DNA of 64,000 nucleotides, the filler included, from Stramenopiles sp. TOSAG23-6 (taxonomy: Eukaryota), in the NCBI GenBank assembly GCA_900128565.1. It is 5 parts of 5 records of this genome, joined end to end, with 100 filler letters (N's around TTAATTAATTAA, not from the genome) between each part and the next. Parts side by side here need not be neighbours in the genome. Positions count along the whole stretch, not along the records: positions 52,640 to 64,000 come from LT636265.1; 4 more parts are not named here. One strand, 5' to 3'. Below the pieces are notes generated by a model. It saw nothing but the letters and a program-made list of their open reading frames with translations, searched no databases and had not been told where the DNA came from. Below are positions 9,417-64,000 of the stretch, piece by piece. The number at the start of each line of letters is the position of its first letter. Within the stretch, counting starts at the first letter, position 1. Both the position numbers and the translations under genes were made by a program.

Positions 9417-10958
9417 CTACAATTCTTCATCATGCGCATTTACATCAACCATTGGAATCTCAGCATCAAGGATAGCATTACCCACATTACTTTCCCTCCA
9501 ATTTTCGTCAAATCTCGTTTTTGACCAATTATAAAATGATTTCCATCCGCCCATCCCAGCCATGTGCATTATATTCTTTCCCATATAGAAGGAAGTCACC
9601 CACGGATAGGAAGTTTGTAAAGTAAAAAATATGTTTCTAAAGTTTAAAATTTGTTGATACGAATTATTTTTCGTAAACTAAAAAAAAAAAAATTGTACAA
9701 AATAAAATAATAAATTTGAAATTGAAATGAATTGTGAAAACATACAACACCAAAGGGCTCGGATAAGTTATAAAATACACGACTATTTACAGCACCGAAA
9801 CGTAATCCTTTAGGTAAATCTTTTGCAGCTTTTTCAGCGGCTTTGATATATTCAGGAGCAAGACTACAGTGTGAAAAAAATATTATTTTTGAGGAAAAAA
9901 ATCGTTAGGTACAAAATTTCGTACGAAAAAAAAATAATTTGAAATTCATAATGAAAACGTGCCTGTCGCATATCGGACATGTATCGCTATAATACTCGAT
10001 AATCCAAAAGTCATCACTTCTCAAGACAGTCTCAACAAAATTATCTTGATTTAAGTCCATAATAAATTTTGATTCATGTCGACCACATATGATGCTAAAA
10101 CACATATTATGTCAGAAATAAATCGTTAGGTACAAATTTTTCTATGAAAAAAATTCGAATTCGATCAAAAAAATAAAAAAAGTTAGGTACAAAATTTAGT
10201 ATACAAAAAAAAATTCGATCAAAAAACACACCTTCTTTATATATTCCAGGTTTTGTTCCCATTTCTACTTCATGCCATGCTTCTAAAGCTTGTCTTTGTG
10301 TCATGCCATTCGCAACTTTAGTCATATGGAACACAATTTCATCTGTGCCATGTCCACCTAGGTACCGAACTTTTTTTTCATGATTATTACTTGGAAAAGA
10401 ACCAAACGTGGTGTTAGTTGGTCGAGTAATTTCTGCTTGACCACCAACAAGGAACATACTTGGATATGATGTAATATTCCATTTGTGTGAATCTGCAGCT
10501 CTATATATATGGTTCTCCGGCTCGGAATCATCAAACTTAGCAAGGATTACAGGTTGCTTTAGGATTTCAAGACTAGATAGTATTTTAGCTGCATCGCGAA
10601 ACGCAGGAGCTACTTTTTGACAATGTCCACACCATGGCGCAAAGAACTCAAGTAAAATCAGAGAGTCATCTTTTGTGACTTCTAGCATTTCTTCAATCGA
10701 TTCGGCGTCTAATTCATGTACTTCAGTATCATCGGGTTCGGTAGTAGGGTTATTCTGCTTTTTCTCCCATTCTGCTCTTGCGTGTTCACAGAAATCACAA
10801 GTCAAAGGACAGTTGTACTGCATGTACTGTTTGTCAGCTCCATTACAGTCACCGTCCATGTTGCTCTTCCACATTGGACAGTCTGGGCTCCTATCTTTAC
10901 ATTGGAATTCACCAGAAGCTAATACAAAATAGACAGTGAGAAAAATGATTGAATTCAT
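9417..10958 (-). CDS. Protein disulfide isomerase family protein with signal peptide, ShK-like domain and two thioredoxin domains (4 exons)
   Basis: CKDRSPDCPMW...CPLTCDFC; FFAPWCGHC; YYSDTCPICDSLAPEY after splicing; C-terminal HDEEL. Confidence 0.8.
9615..9745 (-). mobile_element. Introner-like intron, GT...AA
   Basis: Removal gives EPFGV|TSYPW; starts GTATGTTTT, ends TTTAC-AA. Confidence 0.7.
9864..9962 (-). mobile_element. Introner-like intron, GC...AG, AG repeated
   Basis: Removal gives CPICDS|LAPEY; full consensus core. Confidence 0.85.
10087..10231 (-). mobile_element. Introner-like intron, GT...AT, with two core motifs
   Basis: Removal gives YKEG|GRHESK; TTTGTACCTAAC present twice; 3' end less certain. 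Confidence 0.6.
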
Positions 10959-11213: not shown

Positions 11214-13029
11214 ATGCCTGCACAATATACCATATTGTTTATATTTCTGACTTACGTGGCCATAGTTGTTCCAAGGTTAGTGAGTGGCGATGATGCGTTT
11301 AAAACACTGCAGTTAGATTTTGTCAGTCGTCTTGCAGCTGCACCAAACAAAGAAATATTTGAGACTGAATTTCTCAAGACTCTCAAAAATATTAAATCAA
11401 TGCATACATGGAACTGGCATGTATTAGGCACTGACTCTACATTGAAAAATGAATATGATGGTCCACATCCAAATGATTCTGTTGCCGTAATTGGTTGTGG
11501 ACTTTCAGGTCTTACAGCAGCCAAACATTTACTTCTTCAAGGTCGTAAAGTGGTTTTGATAGAAAAGTCAGGATTTTGTGGTGGAAATTCTTCGAAAGCT
11601 TCATCAGGAATAAATGGTGGCTGGACTGAACGGCAAAAGAAAATAGGAATTACAGATTCTGCTGATTTACTTTTTTTTGATACACTGAAATCAGCATCTC
11701 GTCCTGAAGGAAGTTATACATCAAAACTCATTCGTAAAATGGCCGACGAATCTAAACGTGCGGTTGAGTGGATTGCAAAACACGCGAATGTTAGTATGCC
11801 TGATGTAGGTCAGCTAGGTGGGCATAGTGTTCCGCGGACACATCGTCCACGTACAGGTTTGTCCGGGGCTGCCTTTATTTCTGGGCTGGAAAAATCAATT
11901 CGGTACGTTTTTTTCATTTTTTTTCCATTTTTTTTTTCATAGATAATTTTGTACCTAATGATTTTTTCTACAATATTTTTTCACAATACATGAAATATGA
12001 GGGCGATTTACTCACGATTCATAGAGGTGTTTCACTAACAGATCTTATTCCTCTATTTGCAACAACAAAATCTAAGAATGAACTTGATGACACCTGCTCT
12101 CATGACACATTTGACAACCCTAACCCTACCTCATGCAATAATCCTAACACTAACGAGAATTCACGACGTGCTTGGTTATTGAAGCTTCAAAAAGTTGATA
12201 GAAAATACAAACAAATTGGCTATAAACAACAAGTAGCTGTACAATCTGTAATATTAGCAACAGGTGGTTTTGCTGCTGATAGAGCGCCTGGCGGATTATT
12301 AGAAGAATTGCTACCCAAAAGTGGGGCTTCTCCAAAACTTCCAACGACAAATGTGCGTCAAAGACAAAGGTTTCATCATATTTTTTTTTTCACACGAAAT
12401 GTAGAGCCTAACAATTTTTGTTTTTTTAATATTTTTTTCACAATTCATGGAGCATGGGCTACTGGGGATGGTATAAAAATTGCTCGGAAGGTAGGTGCAG
12501 CAACAGTTGATATGGAAATGGTTCAAATCCATCCAACAGGATTTAGCGATCATCCCTCAGGTTTTAAGGATGATGGCACCAGAGTTCTTTGCGCCGAAAT
12601 TTTACGTGGTGTTGGTGGAATTCTTTTAAATGATGACGGTGAACGTTTTACGGATGAGTTAGAAACACGAAAAACGATTACATCAAAAATGAAGCAACTG
12701 CATACAAGTGGAAAATCTAAATCTGGGAAGTTCGTCATTGCTTTACCATCTGAAGCTTGGAAACAAGTGGATGCTCATGTTCACATTTATACAGGCAAAC
12801 AACTTTTACATTGGGTTGATGGATTTGAAGGTGTTACACACTTTATTCAGGATCGTCTAAACGGCACAGGAAAATTTGTCAAGTCGACGTTTTTAAATAC
12901 AACAAATCGTACCTCCATTGCTATACCTAGGAAAACATCAGTTCATCTGCCCCTATCAGGAAAATATCTTGTTGGTCTCGTGGAACCAGTGTTGCATTAT
13001 ACTATGGGTGGATTAAAAGTTCATCCAAT
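11214..13029 (+). CDS. FAD-dependent fumarate reductase flavoprotein (Osm1/Frd1-like), 3' end cut by gap
   Basis: VIGCGLSG, GGNSSKASSGING, GGHSVPRTH, LATGGF, PTTN|GAWATGDG, VQIHPTG, EILRGVGG, HYTMGG. Confidence 0.9.
11903..11991 (+). mobile_element. Introner-like intron, GT...AT
   Basis: Joins LEKSIR|KYEGD in frame; ends CACAATAC-AT. Confidence 0.8.
12353..12448 (+). mobile_element. Introner-like intron, GT...AT, AT repeated
   Basis: Restores PTTNGAWATGDG. Confidence 0.85.
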
Positions 13030-13099
13030 GTATGTTTTTTTTTTTTTTTTTTTCCGAATTTTTTTTTTGTACGAAATTTTTTACCTAAAAATTTTTTTT
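13030..13099 (+). mobile_element. Partial element copy at contig end
   Basis: AT|GTATGTTTT...GTACGAAATTTTTTACCTAA then gap. Confidence 0.7.
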
Positions 13100-13199
13100 N
13101 NNNNNNNNNNNNNNNNNNNNNNNNNNNNNNNNNNNNNNNNNNNTTAATTAATTAANNNNNNNNNNNNNNNNNNNNNNNNNNNNNNNNNNNNNNNNNNNN
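13100..13199. other. Artificial contig linker
   Basis: N-run with TTAATTAATTAA (stops in all six frames). Confidence 0.95.
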
Positions 13200-23023: not shown

Positions 23024-25026
23024 ATGGTGGGGATATCAGAGAGTACTGAAGCCAATGTTAGTGAAAAAAATACTTCCGACACAAATACTGATCTCGTACC
23101 CTCAAATAATACTTCTCCCTCAGTATTATTAAAGCGAAAGCAATGTTCAGAAAGCAAAGCATGTGCATCTGAGGACGATCTCCCTTTATCAAAGCGTCCT
23201 CGAAAAATGAGTGAATCCAGCGTTCTACCAGTTAGTGAAGGCTGTACCACAGATGTAGTTGAGAATAAGGAACAACTTGGCGAAGATGGTTTAGCCAAGA
23301 AATTCGTTGATAATACGTGCACCAATAAGGCGCCCACTGAAGACACTAACATAAGTGTCAAAGTGATGAGTGACACTAATAATGCGAATGTTACAGGGGA
23401 GTTAGATGGTCGAATTGCTGTAGAACAAGAAGCTCAGTTTAGCACGGACAAAGCTACAAATGAGGAAGTTGGTATCAATAAAACAATAACAAGTATTCCT
23501 CCAATTATTCAAGATAAAGTATCTTTGCTTGTTTCAAATATTGCTGATACCCCTGTTGCGAATAACGTTTCTATGATGATTGCAGGAATGCAAGACAACA
23601 ATACTACTTCACAAGATAACAATACTAATACACAAGATAACAATACTACTACACAAGATAACAATACTACTACACAAGATAACAAAAATACACAAGAGAA
23701 CAATACTAGTTCAAGTTGCGTAGTTACTGAAGCTGATAATATTAATAATTCTTTTGAAGAAGCATACCAAGGAGATAAAAACAAATCTGTTTCAAGTAAT
23801 GATACAAATAAAAAGGCAATATCAAATAATACGGCAATGCAGGTAAAAGTGGCTCCACCTTTTATTTCAAGCAATGAGTCAAAAGAAGTATCGATACGAA
23901 ACAATTCTGCGATCGATACAGATAATGTTGATACAACTAGTGATGGATCATCAGAAAGTCATTCTCATTCTGATTTTCCTGATCCAAACTATTTCCGAAA
24001 AGGATACGATCTTAATGGAAACCCAATGTTTCCTTTTCTTTCTTCTTTAGATGCAAAAATTGCAAAACAACGAGAAAAAGATAATAATCATATGAAAAAT
24101 GATCAAGAAAAAAATGAAAAAAAAAATGATTTAAAGTTTAAAGATTCAATTCCGTCACTTCTGGCAATCAACATTCCGAAAGCGACTGTAAAACGTATCA
24201 TGAAAATTGATGACCAAGTATCAAAAGTTGCTGCTGATGCTGTCTTTATAATGGTACGTCTCATCATGAAATTTAGTTTTTTTTTCATACGACACTTTGT
24301 ACCTAACGATTATTTTTTTGAATGTTTTTTTCATACGAAATTTTGTACCTNACNGNTGNTTTTTTTTNAATNTTTNTTTCACAATACGCAAAAGCAGCAG
24401 AATTATTCGTTCGCAATTTTTCACTTCGATCTTTTGTAGGATCTATAGTAGATCGTAATAGTATTGGAGGTCGCCGAGATATTCGTTACGAAGATGTAGA
24501 AAGGTGTGTTCATCAAGCATCTGAATTTGGTCAAGACTGGCAGTTTCTTTTGCCACGTGTCATTCCTCCACCAATAGAGGCTTCTGTGAAACAACGAGCA
24601 CTTAAACCTCTATCAAACAACAATACACGTAAGTTGGCAGAATCAAAGAGTGGTATTACCAAAGCTATAAAAGTTAATACTTTACAGAATAATGAAGACT
24701 CCCAACATCCCCCGAAAAATGTTGTTGATGATGATATAATGGAAAGTAAAGCAATGGAAATAGATACAACAATGACGGAAACTACTAAAATTATTGAAGC
24801 CAATAAAACAGCGGATACAGCAGCAGTAAATGTTAAGGAAGTTGAAAAAATCCCAATTGAAAGTACCATTGAAGATACTTCTAATAAGGATAAAGAGGGA
24901 AATGAAGCTGAAAAAATCCCAATTGAAAGTACCATTGAAAATACTTCTACTAATAAGGATAAAGAGGGAAATGAAGCTGAAAAAGTCTCAATTACAATTG
25001 TAGATACTTCCACTAATAATCCCTAG
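23024..25026 (+). CDS. H2A-like histone-fold protein (NF-YC/POLE4/CHRAC15-like) with long low-complexity tails
   Basis: IPKATVKRIMKIDDQVSKVAADAVFIM|AKAAELFV; RRDIRYEDV. Confidence 0.75.
23591..23710 (+). repeat. 21-bp coding tandem repeat (QDNNTTT)
   Basis: caagataacaatactactaca about six times. Confidence 0.85.
24254..24387 (+). mobile_element. Introner-like intron, GT...AC, duplicated core, low-quality bases
   Basis: Restores DAVFIM|AKAAELF. Confidence 0.7.
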
Positions 25027-26260: not shown

Positions 26261-26360
26261 NNNNNNNNNNNNNNNNNNNNNNNNNNNNNNNNNNNNNNNN
26301 NNNNTTAATTAATTAANNNNNNNNNNNNNNNNNNNNNNNNNNNNNNNNNNNNNNNNNNNN
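26261..26360. other. Artificial contig linker
   Basis: N-run with TTAATTAATTAA. Confidence 0.95.
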
Positions 26361-39400: not shown

Positions 39401-39500
39401 NNNNNNNNNNNNNNNNNNNNNNNNNNNNNNNNNNNNNNNNNNNNTTAATTAATTAANNNNNNNNNNNNNNNNNNNNNNNNNNNNNNNNNNNNNNNNNNNN
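39401..39500. other. Artificial contig linker
   Basis: N-run with TTAATTAATTAA. Confidence 0.95.
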
Positions 39501-48529: not shown

Positions 48530-50048
48530 ATGAGTAATATAGATTATACCGACGACATTTTCAAATTAACTAAGGATCGCATACATCAGAAATTATCGCC
48601 AAATGGGCCACTTTCTACTTGGGAGAAAACAGGTCCATTTTGTTTCGTTCAGTTGGCTGACACTCAATTTGGTATGCTAGAGCAAACATTTGATGGTCAG
48701 TGGCTCCGAAAATACCGCAAACTAATTAGTATTTTGACTTTAGGGTATATTGATGGAAGGAAAGTAATTCCAGTTCCAGAATTAATTCATGAAAAAGCTC
48801 GATCTGAACTATTTGAAATGGAGAAAATATTTAGCGAACAAGCTGTTGAAGCCGTGAATGCAATTTTTCCACGTATTTTAATTTCATTACAAATAGACAA
48901 TGAACAATATAGATTTAGCCTTTAGGTACAAAATTTTGGTAGAGAATAGAATTATAATTTCATTTTTTTTATTATTTAGATATATTATACATGATATGCC
49001 CTGCTTTTGTCATAGTTTGTGGAGACTTGGTCAATGCTATGCCCCATAAAGAACCTACGTATGTTTTATTTTTTTTTCAATTACGAATTTATTTTTTCAT
49101 AGGAAATTTTGTACCTAACAATTTTTTTAGATTTTTTTTGAAATATTTTTCCACGATACACTCGACATATGGCTCAAGTAAAAACATTCAAAAAGATATT
49201 TAGTAAAGTTCATCCAGATATTGCATTAGTCTGCTGCTGTGGAAACCATGATGTTGGAAATAGACCAACACCAAAAACAATAAAAACATGGAGCAATAAT
49301 TTTGGTTCAGATTATTTTAGCTTCATTGTTGGAGGTGTAAAATGTATTGTATTGAATAGCCAATTATATAAAGATCCATCATCTGCTCTAGATCTTGCTG
49401 CAGAACAAGACACATGGCTCGACTCAGAACTTGCACATACGCATTTGAGTAGGGATAACTCTCAGAAATCACGAATTATAGTTTTTAGTCACCATCCTCC
49501 TTTTATCAACGATCCTTATGAAAATGATGAATATTTCCCATTGGATCGCATTACAAGGCTTCGCCTTTTACATAAGTTATGCCGTGCTGGAGCTACACAC
49601 TGGTTTTCGGGTCACTATCACCGTAATGGTATGTTTTTATAGTGTGAAAAATTTAGTACAATATTTTATATAATACAAATTAAAGTTATTCATTTTTAGC
49701 TTTTGTTAACTTTCTATTGTATACAAAAACGCAGGTGGGATTTATTATGAAACTAAATGTGGAGAATCTAATAGGAGTAAAAAGACAGTAGAAACAACAC
49801 CAAATCGTACTCCAAAGACATTAGAAGTATGTGTAACTGCTGCAGTTGGTGCTAATATTATTTCGGATTCATCCGGAGATATTCTTGGATTATCTGGAAT
49901 GAAAGCTCTTGTAGCCGACACGAAAACATCTGGAATTCGTGTTGTAAAAGTTCACGAAAAAACAATTTCACATAAATATTATAGCCTATTCGAATGTTCT
50001 AAGAAGATAAATGAAGCTAATGATGGAATTTGGCAAATTAATTTATGA
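48530..50048 (+). CDS. CPPED1: Calcineurin-like metallophosphoesterase (CPPED1-like), 4 exons
   Basis: LADTQFG, CGDL, GNHD, HHP, GHYHRN, SGIRVVKV. Confidence 0.85.
48873..48997 (+). other. Intron containing an inverted element core; 3' end 48979 (AG) or 48997 (AT)
   Basis: Starts GTATTTT; contains TTAGGTACAAAATTTT. Confidence 0.5.
49059..49161 (+). mobile_element. Introner-like intron, GT...AC, AC repeated
   Basis: HKEPT|RHMAQV in frame. Confidence 0.8.
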
Positions 50049-52539: not shown

Positions 52540-52639
52540 NNNNNNNNNNNNNNNNNNNNNNNNNNNNNNNNNNNNNNNNNNNNTTAATTAATTAANNNNN
52601 NNNNNNNNNNNNNNNNNNNNNNNNNNNNNNNNNNNNNNN
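52540..52639. other. Artificial contig linker
   Basis: N-run with TTAATTAATTAA. Confidence 0.95.
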
Positions 52640-53898: not shown

Positions 53899-54976
53899 TC
53901 AACAACATTTTTTTTTCAGATTACTTTCACCGACATCACCAGTTAAAGAAACCTTTTTGTCCCCAGTATACATTTGATACTTACTTTTTTCTGCAAGTGC
54001 TTCCATTTCCAAATTCTTCAAAGAAAGTTCTGCCATTTTGAGAAATGCTTCCTCAATGCCAATGCCTGACTTCGCACTGGTTGCAAAGAACGGAATATTA
54101 GAACTTTCAGCCAGTGCCCGACCTTCTTCTATATCACATTTGCTATTAGGAATGTCACATTTGTTCGCCAGGAGTACTTGTACAACATTAATTGGAGCAT
54201 TTTTCGTTATTTGCTTCATCCAAGATCTGATGTTTGAAAAAGATTTTTAATTATCTAAACTATAAACCATGAATGTATATTGAAAAATATTTTTTTTGTA
54301 ATAAAATTCGTTAGGTACAAAATTTACTATGAAAAAATAAATTTAAAATTCATGATGAAAACGTACATATCCCCTGAGCACCTCGGTAATACGCTGTACA
54401 AACTACATGGTGTATATGAATGAAAGAAATAGAGATGATGAGAATATGTTTATACTATACCAATCAAAAGAAATTTATAAAGTGAACACAGTTGTAAAAC
54501 AAAATGTTAGTTACAAAATTTGGTACAAAAAAACGAAATTATTATTGCACTTACTTGTCTTAAATCTTTCTTGTCCTGCAGTATCCCACACTTGTAGCTT
54601 CAACACTTTGTCGCCAACAGTAACAGTTTTAATTTTAAAATCAATGCCAATTGTCGTAATAAAATTAGTGGTAAACTTTCCATCACAGTATCGGAGTAAA
54701 ACACAGCTAAAATATTACAAGATAACAACAATAATACACAAATTAGAGACACAATTGATACTTGCTGCTAACTTCGGAGACTGTTAGTATACTATACTAT
54801 AACATAATAGAAGAACACACACACAATGAAATAGGAGAAAAAACAAAAAATCGGGTAATCAACGTGGCAAAAAAAACAAGACTAACCTACCTTTTCCCTA
54901 CTCCAGAGTCTCCAATGAGCAAAAGCTTTACAAGATAATCAAATTTGCTTCTACTGTTCGAATTTTTCATAGTCAT
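53899..54976 (-). CDS. Rab8/Sec4-like small GTPase, 4 exons, in-frame TAA at 54247
   Basis: [42 protein letters not shown]-terminal CC; GT-AG introns 54707-54890 and 54403-54554. Confidence 0.88.
54273..54366 (-). mobile_element. Introner-like intron, GT...AT, AT repeated
   Basis: Restores [12 protein letters not shown]. Confidence 0.85.
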
Positions 54977-55348
54977 TCTAAATAAAAAAAACTTCGCAGA
55001 AGCAATGTAAAAACTAGCACAAAATAAAGATGTCTATAATTACGCAATTGTAATGTCTGTGATTACTCTTGGCAAATGTTGTATTTGGTTTGCGACTCTT
55101 TCTCGACTTATGAATACTATAGAGTCTATACTAGAGGCTGTCGCCATGTTCGTGGACCGTGGTGGTTGCCACAAAAAAGAAAAAAATAGCAAATAAATCA
55201 ATCGATCAAATGATTCAAAAAGAAGACACAAACAAACAAAAAATAATAAACCTTTTTGAGTGAGCCGTACGTTAACAACGGTTGAATCCGGTACTAGACT
55301 ACATGATTTGAAAAAAAATGTTTTTGTAGATATTAAAAATATGGAGGA

Positions 55349-58300
55349 ATGAGTCTCAGTGATAAAGCATGGGAAATCAGTGGACTGGTTATTGACTGCG
55401 ACAAGACATGTTTGTCCAATATCGAATGTCCAAAGTCTTTGACAACTTCCGAGGAACAACGTCTTTGGAACCTTGGTCTTTCTGCATTTTCAAAGACTTT
55501 ACCAGGATCGTCAAATAGTAAGATTTTTACTGACATATTGAATGATAATACTTCAGATGAACAATCTTATAAGGATAATCCTTCCAATGATAATAATATA
55601 GATAAACCGTATGGACCGGCAGATACCGTTGAAGATATCTCCGACGCTTTGAACGAAAGTAAATCCAGTGTCTTGAACATTGATGAAAATGGGAAAAACA
55701 ATAATACAGAGGAAAAAGTGAGAAGTAAAGATATCTCCGACGCTTTGAACGAAAGTAAATCCAGTGTCTTGAACATTGATGAAAACGGGGGAAACAATAA
55801 TAGAGAGGAAAAAGTGAGAAGTAAGACACCAATAGCAATAAATACAGAAGACAACGAACCATTATCTTCAACTCTACTAACAAAATCTTCTGAGTCAAAG
55901 TCATCGATACCCACAGGTAGAGCAATACAAAGAGCCGATATGGTTATGTACATTCATCAAAAATATACGTCGTCGAAACCCTATTTAAAAAAGTATAAAT
56001 ATCCTACGTGTCAATACGATGGACCAAAGAGCCCTACAAGAGTTATCGTTACACGAAATAAGGTTATCAATGAATTTATAAGTATGTGTGATAAACAGGG
56101 CATCCGTGTGGAATCTCTACTTCTCAGAAGATTACTCGGTGAAGTCGAATTCGTACCAACTGAGTACAAAAACTCAGATGAGACAAATAGAGTATCGAAT
56201 ATTGGATCAATGCCTTCTACAGTGAAAGAAGAATTCGACGAAAATGATGAAGGCTGGTGTATTGATGGTAGATTTTATGGGCAAATTCAAAGCGATTCAA
56301 GGACAGATGTTGCTAAAGATACAGCGAATATTAGGAAAAATGATATCTTCATACTTAATTTAGAAAATTTGAATATTGTAGGTTTTCATCATTACTTTCA
56401 AATTTATTGTTTTGTGCCAAATTGCAAACCTAACAAATTTCAAACTTCAAACATATTTTTTTATAATACTTGGATTTACTCGTGCAGCTGTCATAGGGTC
56501 TGTTTTAGCAGTTATGCCATCGCATTCATATACTACTTATTTTTTGCGAAATAATAGATTAGAGCTGACTGATGGAATACAAAAGTTTGGACCTCGAAAT
56601 AGCTCAGATACAGGTTTGTCGAGGATAATAACGAATTTACCAATAGGTGCAAAAATGATTGACGTGTCCTACAATACAATCGGTGTTCAAGGTACACGCT
56701 TAATTTGTAAACATCTTTCGAATACTCTAAAATCGTTGACGTCGCTAAACGTTGAAAATTGTGGACTAAGTGATAGTAATATTGGAGCTTTATTATTTGC
56801 ATTCGCTGGTCGTAAAGATGTTGGTAAAGATGGTGTATGCTGGGGTACTTCATCTGAATGTGAAAAGAACACCAAAACAAAATGTTTCCCATTACGGCAT
56901 TTATGTTTAGCTCAGAATTCTTTTGGTTCTGTATCTGCATCGGCTTTCTCATATTTTGTGAATACAAATGGGTGCAAACTTTCCAGCCTCGATCTTCGTA
57001 TCACGGGTCTCACAGCATACTTGTTTCATTTAGTAGTTATAGCTCTTATTGGTTCTAATGATGTTAAAGACACAAAAGATGAACGTTCAACTGATATTGA
57101 TGATATGATACAAAAAGACACAAAAGATGAACATACATCTGATTTTGATGGTACGATACAAAGTGCGAGAAAACGAAACATTCACCTGAAAGAGTTGAAA
57201 ATTGGTTGGAATCCAATAGGAAGTGTAAGTGCAAAAGTGTTTACAGAATCAAAATCAAACATCGACGAAAATAAGCCAAGCGGCGTGAAACAAAGTGAAG
57301 CAAAAGGTAAAGTAAAAATATCAAAAACAAAGAAAAAGAATACTAAGAAGAAAGCAAAGAAATTAAAAGGTAAAAAAAAGAAAGCAAAAGCCACAAAGGA
57401 AACTTTCAAATGTAGTAAACCAAAGATGTTACAAAAGACTGCTGGTATTGGAGCCCTCGCATTAGCGCGACTTCTCCGCTTTAAGCCATCGACTATTATT
57501 CACTTGGATGCCTCAGGGCTTCAATTTTCTTCACTAGAACTAGCGCTATTATCAAGTGCTCTTCAACAGAACAAAAAACTTTTGGGGCTACATTTTGATT
57601 TAGCTGAAAAGAGCAGCACCGAAAATGGGATGACATGTGTCGATTCCAAAGGATTCTTAAACGTGGCTTCATCAGAAAGTGCAAAGTACTTATGTAGATT
57701 AATGCTTCCTCCTGATGCACCGCCACATAGTACTATGAAAACTAGACGACGCAGATGTATGTCTCCAAGAGTAACAAAATTACAGAAAACTATACCAAAT
57801 ATTAGTTTGAAAGATATTACTATATGCACGGACTTTAATAAACCTCGCGGGTGCTTGAATCCTGAATGTAAATCATATCATATCTGTAGCGTGTGCTTTG
57901 GGGGACATCCACAGTACCGAGCAAATCAATGTAAAATGGGGCATCAAAAAGTGGATAACATTGATTTCGCAGGCGTTGGCTTTGGAAGACAATGTAAAAT
58001 TTGTCATGGATGGAAGGAACACACATTTGAATTTCGTCCAGGTATATCTCGATTTCGCGAATTACCACCTGGACCCCATGCTGATATTATGATACATTTA
58101 AGTATCGATGGCTGGCGGGGATGTTCTCTTAAAAAAAGTAATTCAGATGACGTCTTCCGTTTGAATCGTTTTTTACCGACAGACTGTAAATTAGAATATT
58201 TCTATTCTGCGTGGAAAGATAAAGAGGCGCATACTGCGTTTTTCTTTTGTGCAAGAGATCAGCCACGTGCAATATCTTTGAGGCCAGAACAAATTTGCGG

Positions 58301-60845
58301 GATAATTTCTGAGGTAAATGTTCTAACTATTACAAGCCCTATTTTAAAAGATATTTCATACCGTTCAGGGTATCTGAACCATAATACATCTCTACGTGAA
58401 TCATTTGTTGTTCCGTGTCCGTTTGCGGTGAAGTCTACGTCACTGTATCAGGGAGCAGATTGGACACCAATGCACTCCGTGTGGGCTCGACGACGATACT
58501 TCACTTGTGATGCAAAATCTTTCTTCGATATCCCAAGCAACATAGAATGTATGTTTGCTAAAGATTGGGCACGGCTAGAAAGTTCATCATCATTTCGCAC
58601 CTTTGTAACAGAATGCGATCTTCCAGAGCTAAAAGGTAAAGATATGGATGATAAAAAACCCATGGAAAATCTCAAGAAGAGATTTAGAAAGATGTATGAT
58701 GAGATTGTTTCTGTTTTTGATTGGGCTCGTGCTGATGGTTGCTGTGCTACAAATGAATGTGTAGGTAGTGTCAGTGTCAGTATCGATATGCCTACATTCA
58801 CTTCTATACTACAAAAAGCTCAAATCTGTGGGAGAAATACCATAATGTCAAACATTGAGATCGAGAAGATATTTTTAGTTGCTGCAGAAATTGGAAGAGA
58901 AATACATCTACAACTTTTGAATTCTGATACTAATTACGATCGTTTGGGTTTAATGCGGTTTGAGTTCTGTGCTGCTCTTTGCTACGTTGCGTTCCGCTTA
59001 TTCATGAGAAAATCAACCGATAAAACTTACTCGGAAGACACACATAATTTCTCACCCGGAAGTAAAACTTATATTACACTCCCGCGTGCCTTGAGATTGT
59101 TATGGGAACAGTGGATAGCACCCGGATTACCTTCAGAAGCAGTGACAAGTCGTCGATCTTTCCGAAAGAATCGACTGTATACAAGAGATATAGATACCGT
59201 CGTTGAAAGATGGTTACCAAAACTACAGAAATTATTCCAGAAAACAGCACAAAATACGATTAAAAGGGGTACCTCAAATAATTGTTTTTTTCCAAGTGAC
59301 TTTAATAAAGATATTTCCGAGGAATCAACTGATGCATATGCAATGCATCGTTTAAGAGGTGATCAGTTTTATGCGTTGCTACAGCATGGAGGTGTTGTTG
59401 ATGCTGTGTTTACTGAAAGGGAAGCTCGGCTAGCTGTAGTTTGGGCTTTAACACAATGTCAAGACGAGCTTTTTCCACGAAATGGGAAATCAGCTACAAC
59501 AACTCTTTCCTTTGAAGACTTTGTAGAAGCCTTAGTGATTGTTGCATGTCTGAAACCAATGCCAAGCTTAGCAGAAATTAAAGGGTGCATGAATACTTTT
59601 AGTATCAGGGAACGTAGAAATCTAGATTATATTTCAACTGGAAATAAGCTTCGCAAACTTGCCCCATTCTATACTGCATGGAAAATTCTAGAGCATAGAA
59701 GTTACAATAACCGAGAAGGTTCTGCGGCGTCCCGGTATAGTAATACTCTTATATTGGGATATGAATCTTCCTCATCTTCAGATGATGATGATCCAGAGCT
59801 CAATCAATGCTATTTAGAAAGCCCTAATAAACTAAATACTGCAGATATAGAAAAATTGCAAAATAAAGCATCAAAACAAAAAAGAAATGACAATCAAAAT
59901 GACATTAATCATGCAAAGTACCAAGACCCAACAGATAAATCCAATGCAAATTTACAACATCTGGTAGAAGGGCCGCATGTAAACATGCCTCTTTGGAATA
60001 CACTTGAAGCTGAAATAATTGGTATCATGAAGAGCAAGAAGAAGCTTTTACATTTGTGGAATAATTTAGATAGCAATCGCAATGGTGTAGTGTCCTTGCG
60101 CGAGGTTTTGGAATTCACCAAACGAAAATGGAGAAGATTGAGCTACAAGCCTGCAGTTACTCGAGCTTTTTGTGCGATTTGTAGAGAAACAGGCAATATA
60201 AAAAACTGTTTTATCAGAAAGATGGAATTTAAACAATTATTAAGGAATATCTTTTATTTCAACCAAATATGGGCATTTTTTTGTATCGCTGATCACCATC
60301 AAGGTACAAATAAAAATATTGAAGTAACCCGCAATGGTCATGCCTTAGATTTCCGAGAATTCCGAAAAGGTCTGAAAAGTTTACGTATTCAAATGGATAA
60401 GAAACAAGCAAGAGAAGAGTTCCAATCTATTGATACTAACTGGTCTGGAACAATTACTTTTGACGATTTTTGTATTTGGTTTGCGGCTCTTCGACATCCT
60501 ATAGAAGATGATGATGTTGATGATACTACATTTGTCAACAGTACCAGTGAAACAAATCTGACTATTACAACTGATGACAATTACAGCTCTAGTAAAAATA
60601 ATGGCAATATCAAGAATAAAAATAAAGTTTTAGATTATGAAGAAATTGCGAAAACAAACAAATCTATGACAGATATTGTCATGGAACATGAAGAAAAAGT
60701 AGTACAAGACATGGAACATGAAGAAAAAGTAGTACAAGAGTATAACATTCGAGCAAATACAGGTAGGTGGAAAATACATGAAAGATTTGAAATGTTATTA
60801 CATCTGATAGAGGACTCATTGTTATTTAAAGACAAGTCAACGTAA
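55349..60845 (+). CDS. Large LRR + Cys/His zinc-finger-like + EF-hand protein, 2 exons
   Basis: IDVSYNTIG, LNVENCGL, LKIGWNPIG; CTDFN..C....C...H; DSNRNGVVSLRE, DTNWSGTITFDDF. Confidence 0.8.
55634..55825 (+). repeat. 96-bp coding tandem duplication
   Basis: DISDALNESKSSVLNIDENG twice. Confidence 0.85.
56378..56471 (+). mobile_element. Introner-like intron, GT...TT, TT repeated
   Basis: Joins the 55349 and 56412 ORFs: LNLENLNI|GFTRA. Confidence 0.78.
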
Positions 60846-60972
60846 ATCTTGCATATACATTATGTACATATCTGAAAAAATACACAATCGATATTAAAAC
60901 TTGATCATACAAATAAAAGTATTATTGATGTTTGTACCAATTAGTACGGAAGTTTTATAATCTTTAACATAT

Positions 60973-63703
60973 TTATTTCTTCATATTAATCACTCCATCA
61001 ATCCGAAGTAACTGCTGGATGAGAGTTGTCATTTGTCGCGCACCAGAAGTTTTCACATTGAATGGCTCAACTGTGTATTTTGGAAAAATATTTCAAAAAA
61101 AAAATCGTTAGGTACCAAATTTCGTACGAAAAAAAAATCGAAATTGAAAAAAAAATAAAACATACATATTTGCATTAAAAGCATCTGAAAGAGTTGAGTG
61201 TGCAAGCTCCGATGATCTCAAAACTGATTTTCTCCTATCATTTCCTGATGATACCATTGAAATTTTATCTTTATTTTCTTTATTAATGCCAACAATTGGT
61301 ACACTTATTATTCCAGTATCACAGCGTTTATTTATACTCGTTATATTTGTTTTCTCATTTTCTATACTGTCTAGATTTTCACAATGAGAATTCTCTTTTT
61401 CTGAACTAGATAAATCTTCAGTTCTATGAGAATGGGCCCGACACAAACTATCCAAAAGTATCATTATTTTACGTGTATTACGGTTTTTCTGTACACGAGA
61501 AATATCATTTATATTATAAAAAGAATTTCTCTCTGGTTGTCTTGTACCATTTATATTATACAACGAATTTCTTTCTGGATATTTTGTACTATAATTACTA
61601 CTAATGCTTTTTTGTACTGCGTTTCTCGCCAGAGCTTCAGCTGGTGCTAAATAACCTGATGCAAGGATATGATAAACAACTTTTAAATACTGATTTTGCC
61701 CATGGAATATAGAAACTTTTGTATTATTCCTCTCTGTAAATGATGTAAACAAACAATGTAGTTTTGCTTCAAATGAACCTGCTCCAGCGACAAGCTGTAA
61801 AGAAGGATCTTCCGACCAAGCTCGGAGAAATCGAATACTCCGACGTATGTATTTTAGGAAAATATTTTCATGTTTTTTTTTTGTTAAGTATAAAATTTCG
61901 TACGAAATATAAATTAATTTAAAATTGATCCTGACCTGAAAACATACATTGATAACGAGTATTCCTGTAACAATCCTTGTGTCGGCGCTCGGAGTAAAAA
62001 TTGACATAATTTACTTTGGTTGATTACATTTGACTTGTTGATATTCGTTTTACTTTGGTTGTTTACAGTTGACTTGTTGATATTCTTTTCATTAAAAGTA
62101 TACTTAATACCTTTTATATATACAAATTGTTTCGGACCAAGTGAATACAAGGATGCACCAGCAGCATAACCTAAGGCAGCATTTTGAAGAGTTTCTTTCG
62201 AACAATCAACCATGTTGGTGACAAAATATTTTGAAAAATATTTGTTAGGTACAAAATTTCGTACCAAAAAATATACATTTGAAATTCATCATGAAAACAT
62301 ATAAAGGCATACCAATTCCACTTCTTGTACATAGAATGGAAGCACATTCATCACTTATCCAAGCAACACCACGCATTCCTCGTGCATCACAACAACTCGC
62401 AACTGTATCCGACAGTTGACAAGTTGATAAAATTAAATTAACACCTCGATTTTGAAGTAATTCTAAACACTGATTGATTCTAATTGATTCAAATGTGACA
62501 ACGTGACTATAATCGATTGCAGTTGCGACATGTATTGTGAAAAAAAAAAAAAAAATTTAAATGTTTTTTGTTAGGTACGAAATTTCGTACGAAAAAAAAA
62601 ATTAAATCGATTTTTCTGTAAAAAAAAAAATAAAACATACATGAACAGATGCGCGTTCACTGGCTAAAACAGATGTACTATTTTTTGACCAAGATAGGGC
62701 ACATGAAAGAACAATGAAACAAACAGGTTCATTAGAGTTAGTATTCTTACGAAGATATATTGTGAAACATATTTTGTTGTAGTAAAACAATTGGTTAAAA
62801 AAAAATCTTTTTCGTTTACGTACAAAATTTCATACTAAAAAAAAAATGAAATTCATCGTAGAAAAAAAAAATAAATTCGAAATTGAAAAAAAAAAGTACA
62901 TGCGCTCTTAGGAAAGGTTTTGATAAGAGAACTCCATTACCCACTGGGCGTGATTGAGAAAGTGAACCATAGCAAACTTCACATATACTTTCATTTTCTT
63001 TAATTGCCTGTAATACATTGTACAATTCCACACCAAGGGCTAAGCCCCTTTTTTTAGTTTTACCGAAATTGCGTATGTTTTGAAGCCAGTCAGTGACAAG
63101 TTGGGTTAAGATTTTCGCAGTAGATTGATTATAGGACGCAGCAAAATGAGTATTCAAAACATGACGAATATACTTCTTTAGTTCAGTAATATCTGTTCCA
63201 CCTTTTTTATTATCTTCAAGAATTTTTTTTTTTTTTTTTGATGGAACATGTTTAGTATCCACTAGTTGCCAAACAACCCAACTGCGCATTGACTTCTCAA
63301 GGATTCCACGTGTCCAGAGATGCTGAACATGCGTCATACTATGTGACAATATTGAAAGCCACTCTCTGGTATTTCCACATGCCCATTCAAATTTAGTAGA
63401 AGACGTGTGAACAAACGAGACAATTTCTGAAATAGCAGCATGTAAAGAAATAATGAGTGACGTGCAACCATCACCGTGTAAACGACTAAATTCTTTCACT
63501 GTTTTGAAAATAAATCGCGCGATTGGGTCCTTTATTGATGATTCTATGGAACGAAGAATAGCAGCTCCTGAATTAGTGACTAATATAGTATTATAAGAAG
63601 ATACCAACATCTTGTCTGAACCAAGAGGGCCCAGAGAAGAGTTTACTAAATCGTTTAATACCTCGGAAATTTGATAAAGTCGTCGCAAGAGCGGCTGCTC
63701 CAT
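60973..63703 (-). CDS. Divergent group II chaperonin-like protein (BBS10-like), 6 exons
   Basis: SSLGPLGSDK, DPIAR, GDG, LRAPT, AGAGSFE, IVEP..VK, LLRID. Confidence 0.7.
61073..61165 (-). mobile_element. Introner-like intron, GT...AC
   Basis: NANI|VEPFNVK; the AG 2 nt downstream would give an immediate TGA. Confidence 0.85.
61847..61947 (-). mobile_element. Introner-like intron, GT...AT, AT repeated
   Basis: EYSLSI|RRSIRF in frame. Confidence 0.8.
62212..62302 (-). mobile_element. Introner-like intron starting ATATG (AT...AT)
   Basis: Full consensus body; GMPL|VDCS in frame. Confidence 0.65.
62530..62640 (-). mobile_element. Introner-like intron, GT...AT, AT repeated
   Basis: ASVH|VATA in frame. 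Confidence 0.8.
62755..62899 (-). mobile_element. Introner-like intron, GT...AT, AT repeated
   Basis: FLRAH|LRKNT in frame. Confidence 0.75.
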
Positions 63704-63928
63704 GATTCAATAAATTGTGCTGATGAATCTATATAGAATAAACTCTACGATATCCAACAATAATCATGACGACAATATTTGAGGTTTCATTATCATTGTA
63801 TAATATTATAGTCCGCCAATGAATGATCGAGTTGTCGGCCACAGTGAGAGAGCAGAAGAAGAAGAGCGATCTGATGTCTCAGAACATCATCGGCCGACCG
63901 GTCGACCGGAATTTTTGACGTGAGTATA

Positions 63929-64000
63929 ACAGTCATGGCCGAGTTTGGTCTAAGGCGCCACGTTAAGGTCGTGGTCTCGTCAGAGGCGTGGGTTCAAATC
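63929..64000 (+). tRNA. tRNA-Leu(AAG), cut by window end
   Basis: TGGCCGAG..TGGTCTAAGGC D-arm, CCACG/CGTGG stem around TTAAGGT, long variable arm, GGTTCAAATC. Confidence 0.85.

Follow-up and report, generated by a model that had tools for sequence, protein, structure and literature searches.

Where is an intron cut when it ends in AC and an AG stands two bases further on? The intron at positions 61165-61073 raises this question. It lies on the minus strand of the window, by which we mean the whole 64,000-nucleotide stretch of DNA that was analysed, made up of separate contigs of Stramenopiles sp. TOSAG23-6 joined by N-TTAATTAATTAA-N spacers at 13100-13199, 26261-26360, 39401-39500 and 52540-52639. 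The original prediction placed the cut before GT and after AC, which keeps the upstream dinucleotide in the exon and passes over the AG. The features of the gene and of the intron are the following:

60973-63703, minus strand: host gene of the TCP-1/cpn60 family, 729 amino acids, six exons, one stop
62755-62899, minus strand: intron 1, GT...AT; a two-residue gap relative to the homolog P0121 lies beside the junction
62530-62640, minus strand: intron 2, GT...AT
62212-62302, minus strand: intron 3, AT...AT, upstream TT; gives PLVD where the homolog has PLQD
61847-61947, minus strand: intron 4, GT...AT
61073-61165, minus strand: focal intron (GT...AC, 93 nt), preceded by four other non-AG introns in this chaperonin-like gene
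61166-61167, minus strand: upstream dinucleotide AT, exonic, bases 1-2 of an Ile codon; upstream copy of a presumed 2-nt duplication
61158-61168, minus strand: 5' splice site TAT/GTATGTTT (slash, cut), with 9 Watson-Crick and 2 G-U pairs to the 5' end of the genome's own U1
61112-61127, minus strand: near-palindromic family box GTAC-GAAATTTG-GTAC
61107-61111, minus strand: branch-site-like CTAAC; branch A presumed at 61108, 35 nt from the 3' end
61075-61094, minus strand: 3' family motif GAAATATTTTTCCAAAATAC; its final 3-4 bases are an inverted repeat of the intron start
61073-61074, minus strand: 3' terminal dinucleotide AC; AT in most family copies
61071-61072, minus strand: out-of-frame AG with which the last exon begins; its use leads to a stop
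60973-61072, minus strand: last exon, VEP...LLRID, the chaperonin C-terminus

The host gene, which may be BBS10-like, matches Pfam Cpn60_TCP1 in exon 1 (E 8.5e-17) and weakly in the last exon, which aligns to the final 32 positions of the model (459-490 of 490; E 0.075). One close homolog was found (P0121), with 36% identity to the spliced 729-residue product. Relative to this protein, junctions 2, 4 and 5 are free of gaps, the focal junction included, and junction 3 has a one-residue gap four residues ahead of it. All five introns lack a terminal AG (GT-AT, GT-AT, AT-AT, GT-AT and GT-AC).

Across the focal intron the minus strand reads ...aat at / GTATGTTTT ... CCAAAATAC AC / a gtt gag cca, where CCAAAATAC ends at 61075. 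Removing 61165-61073 gives NIVEPFNVK...LLRIDG followed by the stop of the gene, as proposed. Cutting after the AG at 61072-61071 yields Ala-Asn-Ile and a stop, also as proposed, and the same early stop (ANI-stop) follows when only GT...TAC is excised. If the downstream pair AC is kept in place of AT, the junction reads NTVEPF, with Thr instead of Ile. The intron itself holds no AG, none of the six AGs in the last exon restores the frame when the 61165 donor is used, and if the intron is retained, reading ends at a TAA within the branch box. Ile had been claimed to fit the family better. This holds in an alignment of 131 homologs longer than 400 residues, 98 of which could be anchored at the Glu of VEP: the junction column contains Val in 33, Ile in 30, Pro in 12, Leu in 8 and Thr in none.

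We enumerated 31 frame-keeping cuts, comprising every nearby GT, GC or AT...AG pair together with each 93-nt register shifted by up to 3 nt. Scored on a C-terminal homolog profile, whose underlying alignment included the query and on which the nearest registers differ by one residue, the proposed cut ranks at the top with 31.1 bits, followed by the TA-CA register (29.3), AT-AC (27.3), AT-AG (27.1) and the best GT/GC-AG pair (19.1). The proposed cut also has the best U1 pairing of the 31. The focal intron is thus very probably cut at GT (61165) and after AC (61073). That the upstream pair is exonic, that GT is the true 5' end and that the nearby AG goes unused is backed by protein conservation, by the stop counts and by the independent register set by U1, the last two of which are described below. 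Three seawater metatranscriptome runs hold 0.07-0.16 of the words sampled from window positions 54000-63990; these values have no bearing on splicing or habitat.

An Rfam search of the genome returned one U1 snRNA sequence, which occurs in two contig copies that do not differ. The 5' arm reads AAACGUACAUG, compared with AUACUUACCUG in the Rfam consensus, and is exactly complementary to the family donor CAT/GTACGTTT; in this pairing GT falls at +1 and the upstream AT belongs to the exon. All three changes from the consensus (U2A, U5G and C9A) match this donor, at +7 T, +4 C/T and exon -1 T, respectively, and a fourth A upstream in U1 would pair with +9 T as well. Averaged over 315 family donors, 9.0 of 11 positions form Watson-Crick pairs with GT at +1; the AT...AC register allows 3.4, and a U1 with the Rfam consensus sequence reaches 6.8. 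The gene scores 54.1 bits, under the Rfam cut-off of 69.5; its loops I and II depart from the consensus for U1-70K and U1A, and the RNA folds moderately (z -1.9). This U1, as known from its gene sequence, is evidence on the register that is independent of the protein fit. With an assembly broken into 6236 contigs, a standard U1 could have been missed.

Genes for U5, U2, U1 and U4 lie head to tail inside 650 bases of one contig (C1146; L073 1-645). That contig carries no family box, and the contig with U6 carries two. The pairing sites of the other snRNAs are standard (U2 GUAGUA, U5 loop 1 and U6 ACAGAGA), and an altered U2, U5 loop or U6 ACAGAGA was rejected. The CTAAC core pairs with GUAG of U2, leaving two upstream positions of TACCTAAC unpaired. 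A genome search for U12 and U6atac gave no match in this incomplete genome. U12-type introns have the donor RTATCCTT; with the donor GTAYGTTT and no U12 or U6atac match, a U12-type intron was rejected. We also scanned metagenome contigs by pattern for relatives with the same U1; none of the 113 stretches returned has a blastn match to the snRNA cluster or to the family box, and they are ascribed to chance.

The focal intron belongs to a large family. The family box pattern has 3264 exact matches in the 21.1-Mb genome and none for the reversed control, a number that is not the copy number because duplicated contigs inflate it: some contigs are mirror-symmetric or duplicated (C2, C4 and C27; C13 and C14). 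Our family sample covers 947,125 bases, namely the window and fetched stretches, about 4% of the genome and partly picked for box density. It contains 497 box matches, which reduce to 411 distinct elements, 315 of them with both ends well scored; the other 96 were left out for weak ends or N. Many similar copies stand at unrelated gene positions, as is characteristic of introners and MITE-derived introns. The median length is 99 nt and the donor is uniform (GTAYGTTT). Terminal pairs among the 315 are GT-AT in 228, GT-TT in 19, GT-AG in 14, AT-AT in 14, GT-GT in 13, GT-AC in 5 and others in 22. Counted by 3' end, 249 copies have AT and 16 have AG, and about 95% are non-AG. A search of viral contigs found no family box.

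Several introns of the window bear on the range of forms. A canonical GTAAGT...TAG intron in a Rab-like gene (54554-54403, minus strand) carries the palindrome and a CTAAC box about 100 nt from its end, and an apparently canonical GTATG...GCAG intron at 49629-49734 (plus strand) is without the family box; AG acceptors thus seem to be still in use, as in the latter. The branch box and its flanks are tandemly duplicated in the introns at 24254-24400 (plus strand) and 10231-10100 (minus strand). Telomere-like CCCTAA repeats stand just past the donor in several family introns, among them 51370-51257 and 44931-44811 (both minus strand), and also in L039. In a flavoprotein gene, 12356-12450 (plus strand) is intron-like, adds no stop to the frame 11828-13147 and was missed by the box pattern.

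The two-base ambiguity at the focal junction recurs across the family, and copies in which the two dinucleotides differ can be used to set the register. Of such discordant copies, 81 have a unique frame; in these, no stop arises when the upstream pair stays and 4 arise when the downstream pair does, small numbers with about 1.7% expected per random change. The copies at 11903 (CG/AT) and 44931 (CC/AT), named earlier as discordant, are indeed so. At 9745, where the intron is GT...TAC-AA with TT upstream, the predicted preference for Val is borne out: FGVTSYP is closer than FGETSYP to WNITSYP in the first thioredoxin-like domain of the same protein. Motifs that we presume to be ABC GKST, MATE EWWAFE, SET DMLNH and photolyase SRLS survive only when the upstream pair is kept.

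In 214 of the 315 copies the intron ends in the same two bases as the upstream exon (permutation mean 168.6, maximum 183). Matched pairs other than AT number 27, compared with a permutation mean of 3.4 (maximum 10 in 5000). At position -3 there is no clear excess of matches (108; chance range 88-109). These matches point to a 2-nt target-site duplication, with 101 of the 315 copies mismatched. The upstream pair is AT in 209 of 315 copies, compared with an exon background of 9.3%. Where the upstream pair is not AT (106 copies), the intron ends in AT in 62 and repeats the pair in 27. Upstream deviations are mostly non-synonymous (41 of 54); the 13 synonymous ones compare with 17.6% expected, and the synonymous-site test of discordant copies showed no enrichment. 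The ends also show an inverted repeat of only 3-4 bp, with positions 1-4 matching at 0.77, 0.89, 0.85 and 0.56, plus position 7 in T/A runs. Such a picture is what a 2-nt target-site duplication preferring AT would leave, but it does not explain everything. Since deviations are mostly non-synonymous and 62 of the 106 copies are still AT-ended, plain duplication followed by drift is insufficient; later selection for AT, or an element that supplies its own AT, is needed besides.

How the 3' end is chosen is a separate matter. The suggestion that the TAC motif sets the acceptor by distance is plausible, at about even odds. In its favour, the distance from branch to intron end is variable (5-95% range 32-48 nt, with peaks at 33-36 and 42-44), and removal to two bases past TAY keeps an open frame in 295 of 315 copies, compared with 156 and 135 at the other two offsets, a correlation that is partly circular because all copies inherit the motif and the boundary caller used it. 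Against it, the intron at 48873-48997 (plus strand) needs a GT...AT end 5 nt past TACAT. That intron lies in a metallophosphoesterase-like gene, presumably CPPED1-like, with the family box antisense, possibly through an inverted insertion or a local inversion. The final three intron bases are Y in 99%, A in 87% and T in 90%, so most ends mimic YAG with the last base alone changed. A YAY triplet read like a YAG acceptor accounts for most copies equally well; the 33 of 315 copies that end in TT or GT have to rely on the upstream motif or on another cue. A fixed ruler from the branch was rejected on the 32-48 nt spread. First-AG scanning was rejected as well: a YAG between the branch box and the end is skipped in 49 of the 299 non-AG copies. 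An AG exactly 2 nt downstream is found in 8 of the 299, the focal intron among them.

We looked for changes in the proteins that act at the 3' splice site. One divergent U2AF65-like gene was found (C433:20200-22300, minus strand; L254). It is intron-free and encodes an RS region, two RRMs and a UHM; both RRMs resemble RRM1 by eye, and the second aligned to RRM1. A U2AF35-like finger was found neither among 23 CCCH matches nor by a motif pattern in this fragmented, intron-interrupted assembly. Prp8 was rejected as the cause: the region compared differs at 16 of 516 near-invariant columns, where the median of 80 homologs is 2 and three homologs reach 17-25. Its alpha-finger stretch is almost unchanged. 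The motif MASGSTTF reads MTAGQATF, with S to A in none of the 80 homologs, and this change is the sole remaining Prp8 lead. The Prp8 gene (L077 4086-9998, minus strand) is open for about 1970 codons and has no family intron; some of its rare residues are common to P0013, whose cluster includes an Incisomonas marina protein.

We consider it probable, at roughly 0.8, that the focal stretch is a major-spliceosome (U2-type) intron belonging to an introner-like family spread through the genome, with its cuts at GT (61165) and after AC (61073) and an AG-free acceptor, as far as sequence can tell. A short non-autonomous DNA element with GTA...TAY ends would have been inserted into exons, preferably at AT, with duplication of 2 nt, so that the last two intron bases would be the duplicated target, usually AT. 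The U1 with U2A, U5G and C9A would pair, through C9A, with the exonic U at -1, so that the donor including the target site would be read by ordinary base pairing. U2 would read CTAAC as the putative branch site. The acceptor would be chosen with no requirement for AG, most likely from the 3' context TTTTYCAMAATAY plus NN, usually a YAT that mimics YAG, and neither by first-AG scanning nor at a fixed distance from the branch. This AG-free acceptor step is the least certain of the four and stands at about even odds.

Four other explanations were weighed against this reading. The one we find unlikely, if the least so of the four, accepts the same boundaries and denies the transposon: selection for very strong splice signals would have made the introns of a non-mobile family alike, and a splicing constraint would explain why exon and intron ends match. 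It would account for the box in the canonical Rab-gene intron, for the 62 of 106 copies with a non-AT upstream pair that are still AT-ended and for the spacers between family boxes, which vary freely. It does not account for the excess of non-AT matched pairs (27 vs 3.4 expected), for the near-even use of the three frame offsets (101/93/78) or for internal boxes shared beyond known signals. Ordinary nearby AG acceptors joined to other donors, such as AT...AG at 61163-61071 or GT...AG at 61161-61066, would entail small protein changes; we regard this as improbable. Frame-keeping pairs of that kind are present at the focal locus, the window has canonical GT-AG introns (54554-54403), and an in-frame AG lies within -24 to +30 nt in 124 of the 299 non-AG copies, so that frame alone does not exclude AG use there. 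However, 175 of the 299 have no such AG, the focal candidates score lower against the protein family (AT-AG reaches 27.1 bits at best and GT/GC-AG 19.1, vs 31.1) with poorer U1 pairing, and host-gene junctions 2, 4 and 5 are gap-free relative to P0121 as proposed.

Removal outside the spliceosome, either guided by structure as in euglenid non-conventional introns or as DNA excision through the 2-nt repeats, would make the U1 match incidental. The short terminal inverted repeat, the 2-nt direct repeats and the internal palindrome would suit such a process, but the focal intron folds no better than shuffles (z 0.02), its donor is complementary to U1, and CTAAC fits GUAG of U2. Moreover, 125 of 132 copies have an open frame when read along the box strand, compared with 53 of 132 along the opposite one. 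We hold this explanation to be very improbable, and a euglenid-type intron was rejected on the fold and on the presence of U1 and branch signals. Least probable, with hardly any weight, is a register shifted by two, in which introns run NN-GT...TAC (mostly AT...AC) and the downstream pair is kept in the mRNA. AT-AC is a known terminal pair, according to the available text of PMC11282704, and either register yields an identical mRNA in the 214 of 315 copies whose two pairs are equal. Against this register stand the Thr it would place at the focal junction, seen in 0 of 98 homologs, the 4 stops vs 0 in 81 discordant copies, the 3.4 vs 9.0 paired bases of U1 and the missing U12 or U6atac match in the incomplete genome.

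Going beyond the U2-type reading with its AG-free acceptor, we tentatively propose, as a possibility that we would not yet favour, that an invading element re-coded the major spliceosome. The only U1 would pair with both the AT target and the donor of the element, AG recognition by U2AF35 would be lost or bypassed, and the divergent U2AF65-like protein with its two RRM1-like domains, or another factor, would read the terminal motif, with the cut two bases past TAY regardless of sequence. If this were true, a eukaryote would have GT-AT as its default intron.

Few rules of splicing are as fixed as the 3' AG, and the dominant family here is about 95% without it. A uniform donor together with a U1 altered opposite the last base of the exon makes this a clear example from nature in which intron signals and the spliceosome have changed in concert. 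The focal intron, with a decoy AG two bases off, is a ready reporter for AG-free acceptor choice. Gene finders built on GT-AG will mis-model genes in this genome, for example at all five introns of the host gene. New here are a U1 that matches the donor, counts at genome scale and the observation that U2, U5 and U6 have kept their standard form. A literature search, chiefly outside subscription journals and supplements, found no GT-AT-dominant protist with a re-coded U1 and no U1 changed at exon -1.

Several known systems share parts of this arrangement; the comparisons follow the available portions of the cited papers. Like the introners of Micromonas, the family consists of repeated sense-strand introns in which the element supplies the donor and the duplicated target the acceptor, although Micromonas introners mostly co-opt an AG from a 3-nt duplication (PMC3879977; PMC11282704). 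IE-B and IE-D of Micromonas have GT-TG ends, in classes of 25 and 6 members (PMC3879977), and the Micromonas U1 is standard, whereas the U1 here is changed (bioRxiv 10.1101/2022.06.08.495308). Amoebophrya, also a marine protist, has introners that are likewise repeated, mostly non-canonical and flanked by direct and inverted repeats, but U1 is reported absent there, the target-site duplication is 3-5 nt and the ends are variable, unlike here (PMC7789003 via PMC11282704).

In Fritillaria borealis and F. pellucida, introns are non-canonical and MITE-derived, with about 5% canonical GT-AG (PMC13326754; PMC11282704). As in our family, 3' AT and AC are common and the last bases of the intron repeat the upstream exon end (PMC13326754); the Fritillaria elements have terminal inverted repeats and target-site duplications, and the minor spliceosome is absent, so that the major spliceosome does the splicing (PMC13326754; PMC11282704). 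The differences are several (PMC13326754). Fritillaria donors are diverse and mostly AG, whereas the donor here is uniformly GTAYGTTT. The repeat there is a YAY triplet, in contrast to 2 nt here, where the 3' ends fit YAY but position -3 shows no clear duplication, and the strong CTAAC box sets our family apart. The Fritillaria U1 is not re-coded, existing in two versions with identical 5' ends for which an m6A change was proposed, and Fritillaria has a duplicated U2AF; in this genome the change lies in the U1 sequence, and one divergent U2AF65-like gene was found.

Co-evolved U1 RNAs are described in Entamoeba (ACAAAC) and Mastigamoeba balamuthi (ACGUAC), where, as here, the 5' arm is altered to match the donor of the genome (bioRxiv 10.1101/2022.06.08.495308). 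The available text of that study reports neither a change that pairs with exon -1, such as C9A here, nor loss of the AG acceptor. The ACGUAC core of the U1 in this genome is that of Mastigamoeba, and its added 5' A resembles the extended pairing in Entamoeba (bioRxiv 10.1101/2022.06.08.495308). Fritillaria is therefore the closest case for the 3' ends, and Entamoeba and Mastigamoeba are the closest for U1.
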